This document shows, piece by piece, positions 2,628-40,216 of a stretch of 64,000 nucleotides of DNA. The stretch comes from an uncultured Verrucomicrobiae bacterium. GTDB lineage: Bacteria; Verrucomicrobiota; Verrucomicrobiia; Chthoniobacterales; JAFAMB01. Made by a program: the position numbers and the translations under genes. Location of the stretch: NCBI GenBank assembly GCA_963837955.1, contig CAWIPH010000001.1:448001-512000 (forward strand), written 5' to 3'. The notes beneath the pieces were generated by a model that did no database searches, was not told the DNA's origin, and was given only the letters and a program-made list of their open reading frames with translations. How positions within the stretch are numbered: the first letter of the stretch is position 1; each line of letters opens with the position of its first letter.

Positions 2628-2933
2628 CTACTCCATCCCTTCATTTGCCGATTGATTCTTCAAGGCGAGGGAACCGTACTTATCCGAGTTCTGCTGAAAC
2701 TTCTTCAGACAATCTTTGCAGCAGAACGCAATCGTCTTGCCTTGGTATTGGGCGTAGACCGGCTTCCCAACGTCACCGACCTTATCACCGGAAACCGGGC
2801 AGACTGAGTTAACCGCTTTGCCAGACGTTTGGGCGGATTGAGCTGCACTCGCACTCCCCGTCGGGCTAGGATCAGCCGCGAAAGCGCTGACGGTAAACGC
2901 TGCGACTAACATGGCTATCATTTGTTTCTTCAT
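2628..2933 (-). CDS. Secreted YHS/TRASH-like heavy-metal-binding protein
   Basis: Signal peptide; CPVSG and YQGKTIAFCCKDC motifs. Confidence 0.8.
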   Translation of the reverse strand: MKKQMIAMLVAAFTVSAFAADPSPTGSASAAQSAQTSGKAVNSVCPVSGDKVGDVGKPVYAQYQGKTIAFCCKDCLKKFQQNSDKYGSLALKNQSANEGME

Positions 2934-3082: not shown

Positions 3083-4492
3083 TCAACCGCCGTGCTTCAT
3101 ATCCATGTGATCCATGTTCATTTTATCCATGGGCTTCTCGCTCTTCTCTGAACTCGGAACAAAGCCTAAATCGCGCTGCAACTCATCATTGCTGGCCAAG
3201 CTTGCCAACGTCCCTGGCGGATTCTCGTACCAGCCAGGGTCATCGTAACTCGTCAGGTTTTCTCGAACCTTCACGATCGTGAACAACCCCCCCATGTCAA
3301 TGTAGTCGTGCTTACCCTCCATGCCGACCATCGGAATACTGTTGCGCGGGACCGGCATGCCCATTTCGCCCATGTCAGCCATGCCGCTCTCGCCCATTGA
3401 CATATAACCGGGGAGTAATTTGCTTACTCTATTATCGAGCTTGCTTGGACGTACCCCGATGAGATTGGGTGCTTTATGCCCCATTTGATTCATGGCGTGA
3501 TGGGTCATATGGCAGTGCATCGCCCAATCGCCGGGATTGTCCGCAATGAATTCTACGGTCCGGGTTTGGCCGACGGCGACCAGGACCGTGGTCTCCGGCC
3601 ACTGCGCTGATTCTGGAATTTGTCCTCCGTCCGTTTCAGTGATCTTCCAGTGGACCCCGTGAATATGGATCGGATGATGCTCCATCGGGCTTAAATTCCC
3701 GAACCGGATTCTTACTCGATCTCCGTATTTGGCCACTAACGGGGCAGTACCTGGAAACGCGCGACCATTAAGTGTGAAGACATTGAAGTCCGTCATTTCG
3801 ATCGGGTTGGGCCGCATGGTGCCCACATCGATCCTCCACTCACTCGCCATGAGAGCGAAGTCTCGATCCGCCTTTGGACCAGTGGGATTTCGCGGATGAA
3901 TGATAAACATCCCCATCATTCCAAGCGCTATCTGGGTCATCTCGTCGGAATGAGAGTGGTACATGAATGTCCCGTGCTGCCTGAGCTTAAACTCGTATTT
4001 ATAGGTCTCGCCGGGTCCGATATTTTTCTGGCTCAGCCCAGCCACTCCATCCATACCCGATGGCACAAGCACACCGTGCCAGTGAACAGTGGTGTTCTCC
4101 GGAAGCCTGTTCGTCACGTACATGCGCACCTGATCCCCCTCCACCGCCTCAATGGTTGGGCCGTGAACCTGACCATTGAAGCCCCAGCAACGAGCGCGAA
4201 GTCCAGGTGCAAATTCGTGATCAACTTCTTCAGCGATTAGATGGAATACTTTGACGCCTCCCACCAATTTATAGGGCAGCGTGGATAAGTTTGGTGTGAT
4301 GACTGGAGTATAATCTTTGCCGGGTTCACCCGGAGGATAGTCCGCTTGATCAGATTGAGCGTTTCCCTTGATTTTCTCGGGATTTTCGAACGGCTGTCTA
4401 GCAGGCTCCGCTCCTTGTACGGTAGTAGCGCCGAGCGCAGCCGCGCCTGCAGTAACAACTGCGTTAGAGAAGAACTTGCGGCGAGATATCAT
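3083..4492 (-). CDS. Tat-exported multicopper oxidase (copper oxidase) with Met/His-rich segments
   Basis: SRRKFF twin-arginine signal; copper motifs HWHG, YHSH, HPIHIHG, HCHMTHH; tail MDKMNMDHMDMKHGG. Confidence 0.93.
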   Translation of the reverse strand: MISRRKFFSNAVVTAGAAALGATTVQGAEPARQPFENPEKIKGNAQSDQADYPPGEPGKDYTPVITPNLSTLPYKLVGGVKVFHLIAEEVDHEFAPGLRARCWGFNGQVHGPTIEAVEGDQVRMYVTNRLPENTTVHWHGVLVPSGMDGVAGLSQKNIGPGETYKYEFKLRQHGTFMYHSHSDEMTQIALGMMGMFIIHPRNPTGPKADRDFALMASEWRIDVGTMRPNPIEMTDFNVFTLNGRAFPGTAPLVAKYGDRVRIRFGNLSPMEHHPIHIHGVHWKITETDGGQIPESAQWPETTVLVAVGQTRTVEFIADNPGDWAMHCHMTHHAMNQMGHKAPNLIGVRPSKLDNRVSKLLPGYMSMGESGMADMGEMGMPVPRNSIPMVGMEGKHDYIDMGGLFTIVKVRENLTSYDDPGWYENPPGTLASLASNDELQRDLGFVPSSEKSEKPMDKMNMDHMDMKHGG

Positions 4493-4509: not shown

Positions 4510-5940
4510 TTAATTGTTTTTGGCTGGCCTTGGCAGCCTTGCATTTATGACGGGTTGGGATTTGCCGTCTGTTGGTTGGCGCGGATTCAGGTTACCGCCC
4601 ACAGCTCGTTCGAGTTCCGCTCGTGTAATCCAGTAATCTCTGACTGCCTCAAGGTATTCGCGCTCGGTACGCGCCTCTTCGGCTTTTGTGCTAAAGAGTT
4701 CAAAATTATCAATCTCCATCGCGTTATATTGCATGAGACTTTCGTTGAGGATTCGACGCTGGCCCGGCAGAAGCTCGTCATGATAGAAACGAGCGATCTC
4801 CCTTTTGCTGGTGAGCTCGTCCCGCAGCTCTCTTATCTGAGAGCGAACGTCAACTGCCAGTGCTTCAAACTTGTCCTGTGACTGTCTTAGAGCCGCTTCA
4901 CCCCTGGCGATCCGCCCTTGCCCTTGATTGAAGATCGGTAACTCGATTGCGAACGTCGGACCAGTCCTGGTTTGCGAATCAGTTTCCCGTTCGCTATTGA
5001 ACCCGAAATCCAACGCACCCACGAGTCGGAGGCTTTTAGTCAGTCCGAGATTCTTAACCTGGCTTGTGACCTGGAGGTAGCCAGCCTGTAAGTCCAACCG
5101 TTGGGATATGGCCAAGCGTTCGAGCACTCTCATGGGAACGTCTGAACTCGGCACCTCGGGCAGTTCACCGGCGATTTGCCACTCTGTATCCGTGCCCCAC
5201 AATCCAAGCAGGCGATTGAACCTCTCACGATTTCGCCGGATTTCGGCGTCCGTTGAGGCGACATCCAGTCGGGAACGGCTGTAACTCTCTTGCTGCTGAG
5301 CCAGCGCCAAGTCAGTGATATTCCCAGCTTCGTGCTGTCGCTGGGCTAGATCCAGCGAAGCGGCGTTAGTATCTACGATCACCTTAAACCGCTTTAGGAG
5401 CTGCTGGGAGGCTTGCAGCGAATAGAAGGCGCTTTTGACCTTCGAAACCAGTTCGAGAGTTGCATCCGCTACCCGCAGAGCCGCAGCTTCCAGCTGAACT
5501 TTAGCAACCTGCTTTTTCAGCGGAATCATGATGATGCTTAAAAAGTCAATGGCCGCGCCATAGTCGATGTATGTGCCGGAGGGCGGCTTGTCCGGAATTC
5601 TTACTGCTAAATCGAACCTCGGATTCGGGAATGTTGCAGCCTCTATAAGGTCGGCGGTCGAAAGACCAATTTCCTCGAAAGTCGCCTGCAGCGATCGATT
5701 GTTTAACAGCGCAATCTGAACGGCGGTGTCGACTGTCAAAGGCTTGCGAAGAAGCTGGCGCACCTCTTGGAGAGCTTGTTCATGCGCTGCCTGATCCTCT
5801 TCCCAACGAACCGCTTTTCCCGTACGTTCCTGAACCGACTGCTGGACATCTTGAATCGCCTGCTCTTTCTCGCGGGCGAAACCCGACGGTAATGTCATCG
5901 CCAGAATTGATGAACAGGTCACAAACCTTGTAATGGTCAT
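4510..5940 (-). CDS. TolC-family outer-membrane protein (copper-resistance associated)
   Basis: LTVDTAVQIALLNNRSLQA, ELPIFNQGQG, ARAELERAVGG-type OEP repeats; directly upstream of the oxidase. Confidence 0.9.
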   Translation of the reverse strand: MTITRFVTCSSILAMTLPSGFAREKEQAIQDVQQSVQERTGKAVRWEEDQAAHEQALQEVRQLLRKPLTVDTAVQIALLNNRSLQATFEEIGLSTADLIEAATFPNPRFDLAVRIPDKPPSGTYIDYGAAIDFLSIIMIPLKKQVAKVQLEAAALRVADATLELVSKVKSAFYSLQASQQLLKRFKVIVDTNAASLDLAQRQHEAGNITDLALAQQQESYSRSRLDVASTDAEIRRNRERFNRLLGLWGTDTEWQIAGELPEVPSSDVPMRVLERLAISQRLDLQAGYLQVTSQVKNLGLTKSLRLVGALDFGFNSERETDSQTRTGPTFAIELPIFNQGQGRIARGEAALRQSQDKFEALAVDVRSQIRELRDELTSKREIARFYHDELLPGQRRILNESLMQYNAMEIDNFELFSTKAEEARTEREYLEAVRDYWITRAELERAVGGNLNPRQPTDGKSQPVINARLPRPAKNN

Positions 5941-5946
5941 GTGTTA

Positions 5947-6255
5947 TTAATTGTTAGGAGTCGGTGATGGTTGGGATTGTTCCTGGGGCATGTTCATGTC
6001 AGGCATCTGATCCATTTGCCCCGGTTGCAGGGTCTGAGTCGGCGACGCCTGCTGCTCCTGTTTGGCAACTTGTGCGAAAATCTGGCGAGTTTTCTTCGTA
6101 AGATCGTCGGCTCCAAGTGCGTTACGAAGGGGTCTTACAGCGGCTTGCGGCGCTGATGGACTTGCTGGGTCATCAGCTGTGAGCTGAGGTGAAGAAGTTG
6201 TTGCGCAGCCTACTAGGAGGCCCAAAGCGATTAACAGGATAGAATATCGATTCAT
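5947..6255 (-). CDS. Small lipoprotein with Met-rich C-terminus
   Basis: Lipobox LVGC; QMDQMPDMNMP; start shares base 6255 with the upstream stop. Confidence 0.75.
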   Translation of the reverse strand: MNRYSILLIALGLLVGCATTSSPQLTADDPASPSAPQAAVRPLRNALGADDLTKKTRQIFAQVAKQEQQASPTQTLQPGQMDQMPDMNMPQEQSQPSPTPNN

Positions 6256-6764
6256 TATTTGTCGTGGTGACCGGTTTCAGGGGATGGAGTTGGAGTTTCA
6301 CCCGGCCGAAATTCGGTATGCCTCACCTGGCCACCCGCCTGAGCGATGTAGATAGCGAGCCCCGAACAAACAATAGCGACCGCGAGAGTCGTTGCTGCCA
6401 ATGGCACACCCGCCCTCGGCCATTTGACTGGAATCAGAAGGCCGGCCAGAGCCAAAAACGCCAAGAAATAGAAAGCCCCTATTGTTTTTTCGGCTCGATC
6501 CATGTGTTCATCGAGCGCATCAGCTCCCGTGTCATCGGCCATGCGACGGACTGTCTTGTACGCCCTCTGCCCGGTCACAAAAACTGGGTACGCTGACACC
6601 CCGGCGATGAGCGTGAGGACCAACGCTGTGATCTGCGCAGCGCGGCTTCGAAGAAGCAATGCAATCGCCAGGGCTAACGCCCCAAGCATCGAGCCGTAAA
6701 TTGGGAGATGATTCAATATCACGTGGATGTATTCAGGCTTCTTAAGAAGATCTAATTCGGTCAT
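6255..6764 (-). CDS. DUF2231-like four-TM membrane protein
   Basis: HVILNHLPI, TG...H and GGQVRH motifs. Confidence 0.7.
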   Translation of the reverse strand: MTELDLLKKPEYIHVILNHLPIYGSMLGALALAIALLLRSRAAQITALVLTLIAGVSAYPVFVTGQRAYKTVRRMADDTGADALDEHMDRAEKTIGAFYFLAFLALAGLLIPVKWPRAGVPLAATTLAVAIVCSGLAIYIAQAGGQVRHTEFRPGETPTPSPETGHHDK

Positions 6765-6778
6765 AGGATGTTGATATT

Positions 6779-6912
6779 TGCTGAATCAGCAGTTTCAGAG
6801 GAATGGCAGCCGCCCAGCTGCGGAACGGATCTGGGTGCGAACTACTCAAAGCCAGTTTGAGAGTCCGACTAGACGGCGGTTTAGCCAGCCGCAGAAAACA
6901 GGCTAGCCGTCT
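6779..6912 (-). promoter_or_regulatory. Structured spacer between the leader ORF and the first operon gene
   Basis: AGACGGC/GCCGTCT and TAGCC/GGCTA pairings (6871-6912), CTCAAA/TTTGAG (6845-6861), TGCTGA/TCAGCA (6779-6791). Confidence 0.5.
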
Positions 6913-7344
6913 CTAAGAGAGGCCTGGAGGAGCGTTTTCGCGCAGAGAACGCTGGAGCACAATTTCGACGAACGAGCCAGCGGATGGAGGTCCAGTATCG
7001 TACTCCGTGCTCGGAAGAATACATCTTGGAGATTCTAACAAAACTAGATGACCGATAGCAAAGAGCTGAGTCCCGGCCAGAACGGGACTAAAAGAGATTT
7101 TCGCTTTGGCGACGCCAGCATGAGAACTCAAAAGCCCCTGACAACAGGCTAACATCCCAGGCTGACTAGGAGATTTGGTGTCACTTTTGGGGCAATGTGC
7201 CGGACAATGGGGAATTGGAACAGCCGTCTCGTGAGGGTGGGTCATAAGCCCTAGCAGACAGTGATTGCTAGCGGCAAACCAGGCGAGTACAGCCACCATC
7301 GCGACTGCTGCATTAAGAAATCTCGCCTTAGCCAACCAGTTCAT
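6913..7344 (-). CDS. CutF/CruR (DUF2946)-like leader protein, candidate metal-sensing arrest peptide
   Basis: Hydrophobic N-terminus, HCPAHC, CC, C-terminal TGPP...SLRENAPPGLS; first ORF of the copper operon. Confidence 0.65.
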   Translation of the reverse strand: MNWLAKARFLNAAVAMVAVLAWFAASNHCLLGLMTHPHETAVPIPHCPAHCPKSDTKSPSQPGMLACCQGLLSSHAGVAKAKISFSPVLAGTQLFAIGHLVLLESPRCILPSTEYDTGPPSAGSFVEIVLQRSLRENAPPGLS

Positions 7345-7471
7345 GACGACCCGTTGACCCTACTTTCCTGACCCCCATTTACAACTTAAAATGCCACAGC
7401 GCGTGAATTCAATTTGCTCCATGACCGAACTCATTCATTGGGAATCCACACCAACTGTGGTTTCTTGAAGA

Positions 7472-9589
7472 ATGAGCGGTCAACTATCAACGAATCGACT
7501 CGTTCACGAAAAATCTCCCTACCTGCTGCAACACGCCCATAATCCGGTCGACTGGTTCCCGTGGGGTGAAGAGGCATTCGACAAAGCGCGCGAAGAGAAT
7601 AAACCGATCTTTCTCTCGGTTGGTTACTCTACCTGCCACTGGTGCCACGTTATGGAGCATGAGTCGTTCGAAAATTCAGAGATAGCCGCGCTTTTGAATC
7701 GCCACTTCATCAGCATCAAGGTCGATCGGGAAGAACGCCCGGATGTTGATCGTGTTTATATGCTCTTTGTACAAAGCACAACCGGTTCAGGTGGTTGGCC
7801 GATGAGTGTATTTCTTACACCGCAACTTCAGCCGTTTCTTGGCGGTACCTACTATCCGCCCGAGGATCGTTACGGAAGGCCAGGATTTGGCACTTTGTTG
7901 GAACGTCTGGCCGGCATCTGGCAAGAGCATCAGGAAAAGGTCGTCGACCAAGGTCAACAATTCACCAATGCATTGAATGAGGCTTTGACCAAAAAGGTAT
8001 CGCAACCCGTTGGATCCTTGCGTCCGGAATGGCTGGATACCGCCTACCAGCAGATTGCTGCAGGATTCGATCCGGAAGAAGGGGGGTTCGGATCAGCGCC
8101 GAAGTTCCCGCGTCCGGCCGTGTTCCATTTTCTTTTACGATATTGGGCCCGAACGGGTTCTTCGTCCGCTTTGGACATGACGCTTTTCACACTGCGGAAA
8201 ATGGCAGCGGGCGGCATGTATGACCATCTCGGCGGCGGCTTTCACCGTTACTCGGTCGACGAGCGTTGGCACGTGCCGCACTTCGAGAAGATGCTGTACG
8301 ATCAGGCTCAACTTGTGTCCGTTTACACCGAGGCCTATCAGATCACTCGGGAGAATCGGTTTGCCGAGGTCGTAGAGAAAACTCTGGAGTATCTGGTCCG
8401 CGATCTAGCTGCTCCGGAAGGCGGATTCTATTCGGCCGAAGATGCGGATAGCTTGCCTTCCCAAACTGCGACCGAAAAAAAGGAAGGCGCGTTTTATGTC
8501 TGGACGGATTCGGAGATAAACACTGTCTTGTCAGCGGATGAATCACTAGTATTCCGCCGGACCTTTGGGGTGGAAAAGGGCGGGAATGTGCGTTCAGACA
8601 GCGACCCCCACCGGGAGCTGTCTGGCCAGAATGTCCTGTTTCTCCAAAATGATGCGGAGCTAGTGGCAAAGCTGACTGGGAAGACGCAGTCGGAGGTGGA
8701 AAACCTTCTGGCATCTGCTCAGAAGAAGCTTTTCCAGACGAGGGCACAGCGGCCTCGTCCGCATTTGGACGATAAAATCATCACCGCATGGAACGGTCTT
8801 TTGCTTTCGGCTTTAGCCCGAACCTACCAGGTTTTTCGGAACCCAATCCACCTTGAGCACGCTCAACGAACCGCAGGTTTTTTACGGAGCCGACTGCATA
8901 CCGAGCGCTTAATGCGCAGCTATCGCCAGGGACCGAGCGCCGTTCCTGGTTTTGCCGAGGATTACGCGTTTCTGATCCAAGGATTGCTCGATTTGTACGA
9001 AGCCGATTTCGATCATCAATGGTTGCAATGGGCCGTGGAACTCCAGACCGAGTTCGATGGACGGTTTGCTGATCCGAATGGCGGGTTCTTTAGTACCGAA
9101 GGTGATGCCACGGACATTCTCTTCCGTTTGAGAGATGATCACGACGGCGCGGAGCCATCGGCGAACTCGGTGGCAGCGATGAATCTGATCCGGCTAAGTC
9201 GCATCTTTGGTCGAGCCGACTACGAGTCCACTGCAACCCGTTTGATCAGCAGCTTTCAGGAAGTGCTCGACCGTCAGCCGGCCGCAATGCCGCAAATGCT
9301 AGGTGCGGTAGATGCGCTGCTCGCTGATCCGCTCCAAATCGTTATCGCGACGCGGAACCCGGTCGATGATGCGCTGCTACAGGCTGCTCAGACGGCCTAT
9401 CTGCCACGCCGAGTCTTGTTGTTGGCAGACGGCAAAGAGGGGTGGCTTGCTCAACAAGTTCCGGAGTTGGGCGGTATGGATCTGATCGACGGCCGGTCCG
9501 CCGCATACGTCTGTCGAAACTTCGCTTGTGAATTACCGATTACTGATCCTGACGCTTTAGCGGCAAAGTTGACAAAGCCGGTCTCGTGA
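7472..9589 (+). CDS. Thioredoxin-domain protein, YyaL/SSP411 (DUF255) family
   Basis: [47 protein letters not shown]. Confidence 0.95.
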
Positions 9590-11407: not shown

Positions 11408-11517
11408 TAGCGCGAAAAACTCACAAGAGAACACCAAAGCGGCGGCTTCATGTTGGACAAGTGAAACTGTGCGAAAAGCAGGCCGCTTTGCTGCTTTTTT
11501 GCGAGTTTTTCGCGCTA
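11408..11517. repeat. 110-bp imperfect palindrome filling the intergenic region after efp
   Basis: TAGCGCGAAAAACTCACAA pairs with TTGCGAGTTTTTCGCGCTA; inner CAAAGCGGC/GCCGCTTTG. Confidence 0.75.
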
Positions 11518-12072
11518 GGCTCTACCCATGTAAGCTCCGGTCCGAGTATCTATCCGAATAGATTCACCTTCTTTTATGAATAAAGGAACTTGAACCGACT
11601 TGCCCGTTTCCAGTTTAGCGGTTTTCTGCACGTTCGTAGCGCTGTCCCCCCGTACGCCCTCGGGTGCTTCGGAAACCTTTAGCGACACTGACGACGGGAG
11701 CTCGATTTCGACCGGTTTGCCTTCGGCATACAGCACCTCCACTCTCAGGTTCTCGGAAAAATACTCCTGCGCTTCTCCCACCAGTTGCGCGCTCAGCGTC
11801 TCGGTTTCGTAGTTTTCCGGATCCATAAAAACAAAGCCGTCCTGATCTTTGTAACTGAATTCCAGGTTACGCCGGGTGACATCTACTAGCTCGACGGTTT
11901 CGGTCGAGCTAAAGCGCACGTTACTTGATTTGCCAGTCCGAATGCTGCGGATAGTCGCCTGGACAAACGCGCGTAAATTACCTGGTGTCCGGTGCTGGAC
12001 ATCGAGCAAAACGGCGATGTCGCCATTATACCGAATTGCCATTCCTTTTCGAAGATCGTTTGCTGCTGCCAT
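11515..12072 (-). CDS. efp: Elongation factor P
   Basis: ANDLRKG, HRTPGNLRAFV, PEGVRGDSAT, VPLFIKEGE, DTRTG. Confidence 0.97.
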   Translation of the reverse strand: MAAANDLRKGMAIRYNGDIAVLLDVQHRTPGNLRAFVQATIRSIRTGKSSNVRFSSTETVELVDVTRRNLEFSYKDQDGFVFMDPENYETETLSAQLVGEAQEYFSENLRVEVLYAEGKPVEIELPSSVSLKVSEAPEGVRGDSATNVQKTAKLETGKSVQVPLFIKEGESIRIDTRTGAYMGRA

Positions 12073-37806: not shown

Positions 37807-40089
37807 TCAGTCCTTCGGTGCCAATTCAGCTAACAGCTTCTCGTACCGTGGATCTTTCCGAAGCGGTTCCCAATATGGATCACACTTTAGTTGGCCGTAG
37901 AAAACACCGTTTGGCACCTTGGTCAAAGAACTCAATTTCTCAAAGGCTAGGTCCAATTCATTGGCCCAGGCATAAACAACAGCTAGATTCAACTCCAAGC
38001 ACGGGCCGGCCAGCGCGTCCTTGGAGATCGGCAACAGTTCGACAGCACGTTTGGCTTCCGAGATGGCTACTTCTCTGTTGTTGAGCAGGGCATCCACCAC
38101 TGCCAACTGGCTAAGCAGTTTGGCATCTCCTTGTGACTTCTGGACCTTCTGGTTTAATTGTTCTCGCGTCTCAACAAAGCTGGCGTTTAAACCAGGTTGT
38201 TCTCCCTGGAGCCGGGCGAGGAGGATGGAATAACAACCGACCGGCACATTTATCTGTCCGTAAGCAAAGTCGCCTTCGTCGTCGCCGCCCTTCATCTTTT
38301 CGATCACTTCTTTCGCTTGCGGCCAATCACGATCAACCAAGGCGAACCCCAGTCGCAAAGAGAGCGCACCTCTGTCGTCGGCCATGGATGCCGGGAGCGT
38401 TGCGATCGCAGCCCGGACCGCGGTGTCATCTCCGGTCCTATAAAAGGTTACGAACAGTGGCTTTTGGGCCTTGAGTATCGGCTCGTCTGGACGGAGCTCG
38501 ATCAATCGGTCGAACATCTCCTCGGAGGCACGAAACTGACGTGTGAAACAAAGGGTAAAAGCCAACTCTTCAATGAAAACCGAATTGTGCGGATCCCGCG
38601 TGATTGCTTCGTTGAACTCCTGGATTGCTTTTTCGAATTGCCCCTGCCGCCGATCGATGAGCGCTTCGAGCGCGATCGTCTCGGCGTCGTTCGGAAGGCC
38701 GTGTCTGGCAATGGCTAGCTGTACTCGTGCCCGCTCATAATCATGATAGCCGCGGTAGAGGTGGTACGCGTACGTCCGATGAACCTCGGGCAGGTCCGGT
38801 TGCAAACCCAATGCGCTGTTTACCGCTGCATCTCCCAAGGCGCGTTGCTCTGGAGTTGGATCGTACAAGTAATAGAGGAGATCGTGCGCTTGTGCCAATG
38901 CACAGTAGGCGAGGACGAACTTTGGATCCAGCCGGACGGCTTGCTCCAGAAAATTGACAGCGTCGATCAGCGGTTTCTCGACATCTCCAAAGGTCATAGA
39001 AACGTGAACGCTTACCAGTAACTCCTTGGCCCGGAGGTAGAGATCGTAGGCCTCGAGATTCTCGGTTGGTTTCTTTTCGATACTCCGCTTTTCTTCCGGG
39101 GAAAGCGTTGCAGCTAGTTTGGTGGCGATGGTCTGAGCTACTTCGCTCTGGATCGCGAAAATGTCGGTGAGATCGCGATCAAAACTGTCGGCCCAGGTGG
39201 TCTTATCCTGGCGAGCGTCGATGAGTTCGGTGCTGACCCGAACCCGGTTTCCGTTCCGGCGCACGGTTCCTTCCAAGACATTGGCTACACCCAACGCATT
39301 AGCGATCTGGCGTAGATCGCGTTTCTCGTCGGCACGATATTGCATGACCGACGTGCGGCTGATAACCGTCAGTTGAGCAACCTTGGCCAGGTTGTTAAGG
39401 ATCTCATCCTGAACACCGTCAGCGAAATAAGTGTCGTCTTTATTCGCGCTGATGCTTTCGAAAGGCAGTACGGCGATGCTTTTTGCCGGAACAGCAATAG
39501 CCGAAGCGATCGAGTCATTCGCTTTGTGAGTGTTTGCGGCGAAGAACCAGAGAGCGCTGGCTATGATAGCGGCTGCACCGACCAGACAAGCCACGAGCAG
39601 CCAGCCTCTCCGCCTGGGTACCATTGCTCTTGGTGACTCCGGTTCCTTTTCAAGAGTGGACTTGCCGGCGACACCTTGATCTTTGCCATCCTCCAGCAAC
39701 CGTTTTATCCGCTCCGTTAAAACCGCGAGATGTGGCTGTAAGGGTGGGGTGCTCGCGTCCAGCCAATGGACGGTCTCCAAAAAATAGACAAGACTATCGC
39801 GGGGGACAACCGCCTCGGTCCGGAACGGAATCACTGCTAGACCCAGAGAGAAGGCTCTAGCCATTTCACGCCGAACGTGCTCCGAGTCGTTGGCGTGGGC
39901 GGAAAACACCAGAACGAAAACGCGGCAGCGGGTAATGCCCGCCATGATACCTTCGGTCCAATCGGATCCCACTTCGATGTCGCGAGGAGCGATCCAGCAC
40001 CGGATGCCGGCCGATTCCAGCTGCCTGCAAATAGCATCTGCAACCGCTTTGTCCTTGCTGGAATGGCTGATAAAGACCTTGGGCTCCAT
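37807..40089 (-). CDS. TIR domain - TM - TolB-N-like - TPR protein
   Basis: VFISHSSKD...WIAPRDI...SEHVRRE (TIR); one TM; KSIAVLPF...YFADGVQDEIL...VISRTSVMQY; TPR-like helical repeats. Confidence 0.9.
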   Translation of the reverse strand: MEPKVFISHSSKDKAVADAICRQLESAGIRCWIAPRDIEVGSDWTEGIMAGITRCRVFVLVFSAHANDSEHVRREMARAFSLGLAVIPFRTEAVVPRDSLVYFLETVHWLDASTPPLQPHLAVLTERIKRLLEDGKDQGVAGKSTLEKEPESPRAMVPRRRGWLLVACLVGAAAIIASALWFFAANTHKANDSIASAIAVPAKSIAVLPFESISANKDDTYFADGVQDEILNNLAKVAQLTVISRTSVMQYRADEKRDLRQIANALGVANVLEGTVRRNGNRVRVSTELIDARQDKTTWADSFDRDLTDIFAIQSEVAQTIATKLAATLSPEEKRSIEKKPTENLEAYDLYLRAKELLVSVHVSMTFGDVEKPLIDAVNFLEQAVRLDPKFVLAYCALAQAHDLLYYLYDPTPEQRALGDAAVNSALGLQPDLPEVHRTYAYHLYRGYHDYERARVQLAIARHGLPNDAETIALEALIDRRQGQFEKAIQEFNEAITRDPHNSVFIEELAFTLCFTRQFRASEEMFDRLIELRPDEPILKAQKPLFVTFYRTGDDTAVRAAIATLPASMADDRGALSLRLGFALVDRDWPQAKEVIEKMKGGDDEGDFAYGQINVPVGCYSILLARLQGEQPGLNASFVETREQLNQKVQKSQGDAKLLSQLAVVDALLNNREVAISEAKRAVELLPISKDALAGPCLELNLAVVYAWANELDLAFEKLSSLTKVPNGVFYGQLKCDPYWEPLRKDPRYEKLLAELAPKD

Positions 40090-40164
40090 ACGGTAGCAGG
40101 AGCGTTGTAGTCGATTCAGTGACCGATGGCGAGCGGAAGCGGCAGTGCAGAATCGATCCCGAAG

Positions 40165-40216
40165 GGGAGGGCGCACGTCCTCGTGCGCCGCGGATCGCGA
40201 GGACGCGATCCCTCCC
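40165..40216. repeat. Uninterrupted GGAG-type REP doublet
   Basis: GGGAGGGCGCACGTCCTCGTGCGCCG followed by CGGATCGCGAGGACGCGATCCCTCCC. Confidence 0.9.

Follow-up and report, generated by a model that had tools for sequence, protein, structure and literature searches.

ORF1, a 143-residue open reading frame (ORF) of an uncultured Verrucomicrobiae bacterium, probably encodes a nascent-peptide copper sensor of the CruR/CutF kind that controls the genes downstream of it in cis, a reading to which we give a probability of roughly 60%. The gene lies at 6913..7344 on the minus strand of a 64,000-nucleotide stretch of DNA (contig CAWIPH010000001.1 of assembly GCA_963837955.1, positions 448,001 to 512,000), which we call the window; coordinates refer to the window, and its features described below lie on the minus strand, apart from one divergently transcribed neighbour of ORF1. 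A sequence-only reading of this DNA had put forward such a sensor in a different phylum from those of CruR and CutF. That proposal is supported by an export-type N-terminus, by invariant cysteines, by an Ala-Pro-Pro motif three residues from the stop codon, by the first place of the gene in a copper operon at 14 of 15 related loci, by the long gap that follows it, by the assignment to Verrucomicrobiota and by the lack of a copper regulator in the window; membership in DUF2946, a conserved CxxHC motif and a series of hairpins, which were also part of it, did not hold up.

ORF1 belongs to a large family with an invariant C-terminal motif

A word-indexed protein search at E ≤ 0.01 yielded 295 candidates, 277 of which match ORF1 at that threshold; among the 120 matches listed, identity runs from 54 to 100%, and nearly all are 143 residues long. 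In an exhaustive search of 1.84 billion representatives, 292 proteins match the ORF1 family at E ≤ 1e-3, 67 at 1e-10 and 5 at 1e-30, and almost all of these representatives are 110–200 residues in length. These matches lie far beyond chance: ORF1 is a real gene, and it belongs to a large, unnamed and widely conserved family. Comparison with Pfam and NCBIfam matched it to no family.

We examined conservation in an alignment of 70 diverse members that are 25–62% identical to the window protein (alignment A2). Residues C29, C47, C67, C68, G118, A138, P139 and P140 are invariant in all 70, and W22, N27, H28, P119, P120, F125, E127, V129, L130 and S133 are conserved in at least 90% (N27 and H28 in at least 94%, P119 in 99% and P120 in 94%). 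Conservation is concentrated in blocks: the majority residue accounts for a fraction of 0.76 at positions 116–140, 0.74 at 67–71 and 0.73 at 22–31, and for only 0.30 and 0.26 in the variable regions 32–66 and 72–115. The most conserved part of ORF1 is thus the run of 25 residues that stands just ahead of its 3-residue tail. The second cysteine of CxxHC, C51, is clade-specific, being kept in close relatives and variable in the wider family, so that the conservation expected for this motif by the sequence-only reading is restricted to the former.

The predicted protein carries K6 and R8 followed by a hydrophobic run at residues 9–25, whose core ends in W22. Hydropathy, the charged n-region and a helix in the AlphaFold2 model mark residues 1–26 (7267..7344) as a likely export signal or signal-anchor; across the family, hydropathy peaks at residues 12–21, and Lys or Arg is present in the n-region of 63 of the 70 members. 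Residues 28–68 (7141..7263), with H28-C29, C47, H50 and C67-C68, presumably form a periplasmic Cys/His sensor region, in which the cysteine motifs are PHCPAHCPK (C47, H50, C51) and the pair C67-C68. The candidate arrest peptide is the C-terminal conserved block, residues 116–140 (6925..6999), which ends in NAPP and contains a second strong di-proline motif, TGPP, at residues 117–120 (6985..6996). The C-terminus reads QRSLRENAPPGLS, with NAPP encoded at 6936..6925 and the stop codon at 6915..6913. Each of the protein features that had been noticed at the outset (a signal-like N-terminus, HCPAHC, CC, TGPP and a C-terminal motif) is therefore present. AlphaFold2, supplied with the 70-sequence alignment, gave a model without a compact fold (mean predicted local distance difference test score, pLDDT, 69) in which isolated helices span residues 2–26, 28–35, 66–72, 87–101 and 125–137, and in which confidence is low across residues 28–68.

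The terminal motif is nearly universal. Among 343 family-sized proteins, 330 carry xAPP and 328 carry both CC and xAPP; the 13 without APP are mostly truncated. Conservation of a terminal xAPP, predicted from the window alone, is borne out by these counts and by the invariance of A138-P139-P140 in the 70-member alignment. The motif is HAPP in 193 of the 330 proteins, NAPP in 133 and another variant in 4, and position 137 is His in 58 of the 70 representatives, Asn in 9, another residue in 3 and never Arg; the NAPP of the window is thus a sub-clade variant of a mainly HAPP family. Spacing is equally constrained. The tail after xAPP is exactly 3 residues long in 278 of 330 proteins and 2–4 residues long in 327, the distance from CC to xAPP is 69–70 residues in 241 of 328, and 306 of 330 share one and the same distance from GPP to xAPP. 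The Ala-Pro-Pro codons vary synonymously across 14 loci, indicating that selection acts on the peptide. A scan of the window and the 15 related loci for paralogues ending in [AG]PP returned only ORF1 orthologues and a few spurious frames.

These motifs have precedents in translational arrest. Both APP and GPP are in the strong class of di-proline motifs, and stalling is enhanced by His at position −2 (PMC5811046). HAPP and QAPP peptides arrest ribosomes, mutation of the His or Gln weakens the arrest (e.g., H129A), and TGPP is among the RAPP-like query motifs of the same study (PMC10987492). A literature search for HAPP as a ribosome arrest peptide yielded that study alone. NAPP does not occur in PMC10987492, where it is thus absent from the query motifs, or in PMC12992588, and a literature search for NAPP in nascent-chain translation arrest found nothing.

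ORF1 heads a copper operon in related genomes

Using a separate alignment (A1), we identified 15 related loci, all of the NAPP clade. Thirteen are labelled Verrucomicrobiota, Verrucomicrobiae or Chthoniobacterales, and the other two are labelled only "bacterium". The ORF1 orthologue is the first gene of a same-strand copper homeostasis operon at 14 of the 15. The same outer-membrane efflux protein (OEP) lies downstream at 13, and a multicopper oxidase is visible at 10, with 3 more loci ending inside the OEP gene. Which gene stands next to ORF1 varies: it is mostly ORF2, a predicted membrane protein, with ORF3 in its place at loci L003, L012 and L013 and OEP at L014 and L015. The gap after ORF1 is always long, measuring 132–422 nt in 14 loci.

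As the sequence-only reading had remarked, a DNA-binding copper regulator is missing here: none of the MerR/CueR, CsoR, CopY or two-component type is encoded in the 64-kb window, and the regulators that it does encode are of the LysR, TetR and AraC types only, all at least 13 kb away.

A promoter-like block at 7357–7384 (minus strand), consisting of TTGTAA, 16 nt and TAGGGT, ends 13 nt upstream of the ORF1 start. Similar blocks are present at L001, L002, L003 and L009, and TTGAGA is found instead at other loci; a consensus promoter scan did not include the block among its listings.

Two hairpins flank the end of the coding sequence

The intergenic region between ORF1 and ORF2 (6765..6912, minus strand) is 148 nt long, contains more C than G and has no obvious Shine-Dalgarno sequence ahead of ORF2. 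The excess of C is shared, with a C/G ratio of 1.10 to 1.51 in 14 of 15 gaps (1.00 at L009), against a coding-strand median of about 1.0. A hairpin, H1 (6871..6912), starts from the first base after the stop codon; the coordinates reported for it earlier were recovered exactly. Its two 7-nt arms, 6906–6912 and 6871–6877, are 100% complementary and separated by 28 nt. In 964 of 5000 dinucleotide shuffles of the gap, a perfect inverted repeat of at least 7 nt arises at some position, and in only 39 of 5000 does one start within the first 3 nt. The outer stem, GACGGC/GCCGTC, is kept at 9 of 9 close loci, mostly unchanged and with few G-U changes, and the inner stem shows 2–3 compensatory changes. 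At distant loci a hairpin also lies 0–6 nt past the stop codon, yet these hairpins are typical of short GC-rich segments. Because no U-tract lies 3′ of H1, it is not a classical intrinsic terminator, and since its first 12 nt recur nowhere else in the window, it does not belong to a dispersed repeat. A search of Rfam with 6600–7600 at E ≤ 1 gave no match.

A second hairpin, H0 (6931..6953), is an inverted repeat inside the coding sequence at codons 131–138 and ends just before the Pro-Pro codons. Its arms are 9 nt long and 89% complementary in the window. A stem of 7–10 bp is predicted at 12 of 14 loci (L002–L009 and L011–L014), and it is weaker in the window and at L001. In the 5′ arm, R132 is encoded by CGT at 14 of 14 loci and S133 by TCT at 11 of 14, whereas in window genes these codons serve for 18% of Arg and 13% of Ser, respectively. 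This codon bias suggests an RNA-level constraint beside the Pro-Pro codons.

ORF1 combines features of CruR and CutF

CruR (Bp2923) of Bordetella pertussis is an exported protein of 145 residues with a CxxC motif and RAPP at 139–142, followed by a gap of 162 nt (PMC9426467). Arrest at RAPP shields the transcript from Rho, copper relieves the arrest, and CruR is needed in cis (PMC9426467); when it arrests in vitro, the third and fourth motif codons occupy the P site and the A site, respectively (PMC12992588). ORF1 resembles CruR in encoding a small, apparently exported protein (143 vs 145 residues) as the first gene of a copper-related operon, in placing xAPP three residues before the end, in the long gap that follows (148 vs 162 nt) and in being predicted to be poorly structured (PMC9426467). 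The two differ in that CruR has RAPP whereas the ORF1 family has NAPP or HAPP, and in that CruR heads an uptake operon switched off by copper whereas ORF1 heads a detoxification operon. The CruR signal peptide, further, is dispensable.

CutF of Rhodobacter capsulatus, encoded in cutFOG, undergoes copper-induced stalling during export (bioRxiv 10.1101/2025.02.05.636593). Binding of copper to cysteines that the nascent chain exposes in the periplasm lengthens a stall at PPP, overriding elongation factor P (EF-P), and the stalled ribosome melts a stem-loop over the cutO ribosome-binding site (bioRxiv 10.1101/2025.02.05.636593; PMC9973294). Both CutF and, by prediction, ORF1 are exported, cysteine-bearing leaders upstream of a multicopper oxidase exported by the twin-arginine (Tat) pathway (PMC9973294), both have four cysteines in the mature part, and in both cases copper is expected to induce the downstream genes. 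CutF acts in cis (PMC9973294; bioRxiv 10.1101/2025.02.05.636593), and the same would be expected of ORF1. By the measures used to define CutF-like proteins in PMC9973294, ORF1 has a fitting length (143 residues), a Pro-Pro pair (139–140) no more than 15 residues from its end and a same-strand gene within 1000 nt (at 148 nt); the text of that paper does not name Verrucomicrobiota. By contrast, CutF uses CxxxC and PPP; the gap after CutF is short, with the cutO Shine-Dalgarno sequence directly shielded by a stem-loop, whereas ORF1 is followed by 148 nt and we found no conserved stem over the ORF2 start; and the gene after ORF1 encodes a membrane protein, unlike that after CutF.

A third set of peptides, the RQH family of HAPP and QAPP peptides (e.g., uDF_RQH_Lachnospirales), likewise joins an N-terminal localisation signal to a C-terminal HAPP (PMC10987492). 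The His contributes to their arrest in vitro, and HAPP is also the majority form of the ORF1 family (58 of 70). Unlike ORF1, these peptides sit upstream of secA, secDF or yidC, where they monitor export, and contain no Cys motif (PMC10987492); ORF1 precedes genes for metal efflux and oxidation. The NAPP of the window falls outside the RQH motif (R/Q/H-A/G-P-P; PMC10987492), and the HAPP of most of the wider family falls within it. In Xanthomonas and Stenotrophomonas, copper induces a downstream copper oxidase only if the leader ORF CopL is present in cis; CopL is counted as CutF-like (PMC9973294) and is comparable by description only.

A proposed mechanism of copper sensing

We propose that the N-terminus of ORF1 brings the translating ribosome to the Sec translocon. 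While P139 and P140 are being decoded, C67-C68 would lie about 70 residues from the peptidyl-transferase centre, so that the four cysteines would be exposed in the periplasm with residues 116–140 filling the exit tunnel; this spacing favours periplasmic sensing as in CutF over the 45-residue arrangement of CruR. In the absence of copper, folding or disulfide formation, the pull of translocation and EF-P would together carry the ribosome past APP, and translation would terminate three codons on. Copper bound to the thiolates would abolish the pull and leave the ribosome arrested between H0 and H1, with its front edge at about the stop codon. Specifically, with P139 in the P site (first base 6930), a footprint extending 15–16 nt further would end at the stop codon, just short of H1, and the 3′ arm of H0 would lie inside the ribosome. 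Since the operon serves copper detoxification, the stall should be lengthened by copper, and the arrest would alter the fate of the downstream RNA so as to allow expression of the detoxification genes. With a long C-rich gap and no conserved stem at the ORF2 start, we favour protection from Rho-type termination over unmasking of a ribosome-binding site, and protection from premature termination is accordingly the more likely of the two outputs on this analysis. The output would then be CruR-like, yet copper would induce the arrest as it does in CutF.

A bolder form of the proposal is that the family constitutes an Arg-independent class of RAPP-like arrest peptides (with His or Asn), in which two strong di-proline sites, TGPP and [H/N]APP, lie exactly 20 residues apart and the stall lies between the conserved hairpins H0, which runs up to the Ala codon, and H1, which begins directly after the stop codon. 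The resulting copper switch would work in two stages, sense the periplasm and be restricted to Verrucomicrobiota of soil. The family may have arisen from DUF2946, with TGPP as what is left of the ancestral arrest site. We regard this extended scheme as speculative and rather doubtful.

Evidence against the proposal and alternative explanations

A number of observations weigh against a CruR/CutF-like sensor. The Arg of RAPP cannot be replaced by any of the 19 other residues in ApcA, ApdA and ApdP (PMC12992588), and its position is taken by Asn in the window and, for the most part, by His in the family. The ORF1 family conserves neither the CxxC of CruR nor the CxxxC of CutF; CruR has its CxxC 45 residues before the motif, and ORF1 has CC 69–70 residues before it, plus the invariant C29 and C47. 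In the RNA, the fold of 6740–6960 (221 nt) has z = −0.36, with 69 of 200 shuffles folding equally well or better, so that the further hairpins once described between H1 and the next start codon do not stand out from chance. Among 16 post-stop segments, only 2 reach a z below −2. When the gap was folded by consensus, for which few and closely related sequences were available, only three short stems emerged, with a covariation term of −0.34 to −0.45 kcal/mol, and covariation is sparse across them. The surplus of C over G is moderate, and the best windows of 78 nt rank in the top 0–19% of the coding background. Genomic context covers the NAPP clade alone, and a copper regulator may be encoded outside the window. 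Finally, a protein of 143 residues with conserved periplasmic positions could equally be a stable one.

The comparison with DUF2946 (PF11162) also counts against the proposal as first framed. The window protein does not match the PF11162 hidden Markov model at E ≤ 1. Two of the 70 members of alignment A2 give sub-threshold hits, with E of at least 0.31, as do 5 of 148 representatives at E 0.31–9.5, the best scoring 12.2 bits against a gathering score of 23.7 bits. Among the features of DUF2946, the ORF1 family lacks a conserved CxxC or CxxxC, RAPP with Arg first and a spacing of about 45 residues from Cys to motif (69–70 here). Others are present: ORF1 appears to have the N-terminal export signal found in more than 95% of DUF2946 members, the family places its motif near the C-terminus, and the gene leads a copper operon at 14 of 15 loci. 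The gap from C68 to T117 of TGPP is 48 residues, and 2 of the 5 weak PF11162 alignments end at residues 119–120; we take this spacing and the ending of alignments at TGPP as a lead only. Among the weak matches, no Pfam family other than DUF2946 turns up more than twice. In a language-model atlas, 23% of the members of the nearest named cluster (Verrucomicrobiota) carry DUF2946, with a score of 0.95 and only 135 shared features, and the DUF2946-bearing cluster stands beside DUF6769 (Bacteroidota) and DUF8199 (Myxococcota). Literature searches found no paper pairing Verrucomicrobiota with DUF2946 and nothing relevant on DUF6769 or DUF8199. A remote kinship between the two families, as opposed to membership, is possible on these comparisons.

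If ORF1 is a stable protein, it might serve the efflux protein and the oxidase as an accessory or chaperone that is anchored in the membrane and binds copper in the periplasm, with its C-terminal tail making a protein contact. CutF was itself first proposed to be a chaperone (PMC9426467). The invariant Cys and His residues of ORF1 are not part of the putative tunnel segment, members keep a length of about 140 residues, the motif lacks Arg, and the moderately hydrophobic segment 87–103, predicted to be helical, might be a second membrane helix. Only 40% of members, however, exceed a Kyte-Doolittle hydropathy of 1.6 in that segment; the model lacks a globular form, its predicted template-modelling score (pTM) being 0.35; and a search of the PDB with the family profile returned no match to any solved structure at E ≤ 10. 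A stable protein would also sit poorly with a best-conserved block that ends exactly three residues before the stop codon and holds two strong di-proline motifs, and with a long gap after the gene at every locus. We consider this explanation unlikely.

ORF1 could alternatively be an arrest peptide that responds to a signal other than copper, such as the thiol-redox state of the envelope, Sec capacity or another thiophilic metal such as silver. At L011 the orthologue heads a CusCBA-like operon of the resistance-nodulation-division (RND) type, and CusCBA-like RND systems also handle silver. The four invariant cysteines could report disulfide formation, the divergently transcribed neighbour upstream of ORF1 encodes a thioredoxin-fold DUF255 protein, and RAPP-type peptides are found upstream of DsbA and thioredoxin genes (PMC12992588). 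The recurrence of the same OEP at 13 of 15 loci and of a visible multicopper oxidase at 10, together with the Met/His-rich tails and the YHS protein of the operon, nevertheless points to copper, and we hold another signal to be improbable. Small, too, is the chance that an unlinked transcription factor acts at the ORF1 promoter and that H1 only stabilises or processes the mRNA, thereby setting the ratio of ORF1 to downstream products. Such an arrangement would agree with an H1 that has no U-tract and little covariation, with the promoter-like block upstream of ORF1 and with a view limited to 64 kb of the genome; it would leave unexplained the invariant APP, its fixed distance from the stop codon and the tunnel-length conserved block, and no copper regulator was found within the window. 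It is also compatible with a nascent-peptide sensor and does not exclude one.

Control of copper genes by a nascent exported peptide is represented by only two systems, both proteobacterial, with opposite responses to the metal. If ORF1 is such a sensor, its family extends copper-sensing nascent peptides to another phylum, and does so with a large membership and sharply defined motifs. The family supplies natural variants, His and Asn in place of Arg, that bear on whether the first residue of RAPP-like motifs is fixed. It bears also on how a metal signal in the periplasm is relayed to the peptidyl-transferase centre, given a distance from CC to the stall of about 70 residues as against 45 in CruR, and on how a stall can take effect over a long gap. 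In that case, too, hundreds of genes at the head of copper operons in soil metagenomes, now annotated as "hypothetical proteins", would receive a corrected annotation.

Genes of the operon and other features of the window

Downstream of ORF1 on the minus strand, ORF2 (6255..6764) encodes a membrane protein of 169 residues with four predicted transmembrane segments and no known family; it is kept downstream of ORF1 at 10 of 15 loci. ORF3 (5947..6255), 102 residues, is lipoprotein-like with a Met-rich tail, as judged from its sequence and the related loci. The OEP gene that follows (4510..5940) encodes a protein of the OEP/TolC/CusC type (PF02321, E = 3.1e-29). Next is the multicopper oxidase (3083..4492), of the CopA/CueO type, whose N-terminus is of the twin-arginine kind and whose tail is rich in Met and His; it matches Cu-oxidase_3 with E = 1e-41 and TIGR01480 with 184.7 bits, which is under the cut-off of that model. 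An exported YHS-domain protein (2628..2933; PF04945, E = 1.4e-07) is encoded by the last gene of the cluster. The tails of ORF3 (QMDQMPDMNMP) and of the multicopper oxidase (MDKMNMDHMDMKHGG) are rich in Met, His and Asp, as is typical of periplasmic Cu(I)-binding segments.

Two related loci depart from this arrangement. At L011 (6001–12419), ORF1 and ORF2 head a CusCBA-type operon instead of OEP and multicopper oxidase, comprising a different OEP, an HlyD_D23 protein that resembles CusB and carries a heavy-metal-binding domain, and an RND pump of the AcrB family. L010 (6001–6441 and downstream) is a decayed remnant with no copper operon behind it. It lacks one base at the usual stop codon, so that the ORF runs three codons further, to a TAG inside the hairpin. 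Its gap can be aligned only in its first part, up to a TTCCG block, and its downstream genes are unrelated, encoding a GFO/IDH/MocA oxidoreductase and a major facilitator superfamily (MFS) transporter.

Upstream of ORF1, a small exported protein ending in AFK(S/G)MH is encoded at L001, L004–L008 and L010 and is absent from the window. L006 (2594–5894) also has, upstream, a P-type ATPase split into two ORFs, which is likewise absent from the window; the divergent DUF255 gene takes their place there. At L003 (about 5840–5960), short tandem repeats precede the ORF1 orthologue, GTGAGAG units being followed by CGCCGAA units.

Elsewhere in the window, an elongation factor P gene (EFP_N, EFP and Elong-fact-P_C domains) lies at 11515–12072 on the minus strand, 4.2 kb from ORF1. 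EF-P relieves Pro-Pro stalls and is needed for CutF control; the nearness of its gene to ORF1 is probably a coincidence. At 37807–40176 (minus strand), a protein of 789 residues combines an N-terminal TIR_2 domain (9.4e-24) with tetratricopeptide (TPR) repeats and, from this domain content, may have a defence or signalling role unrelated to ORF1.

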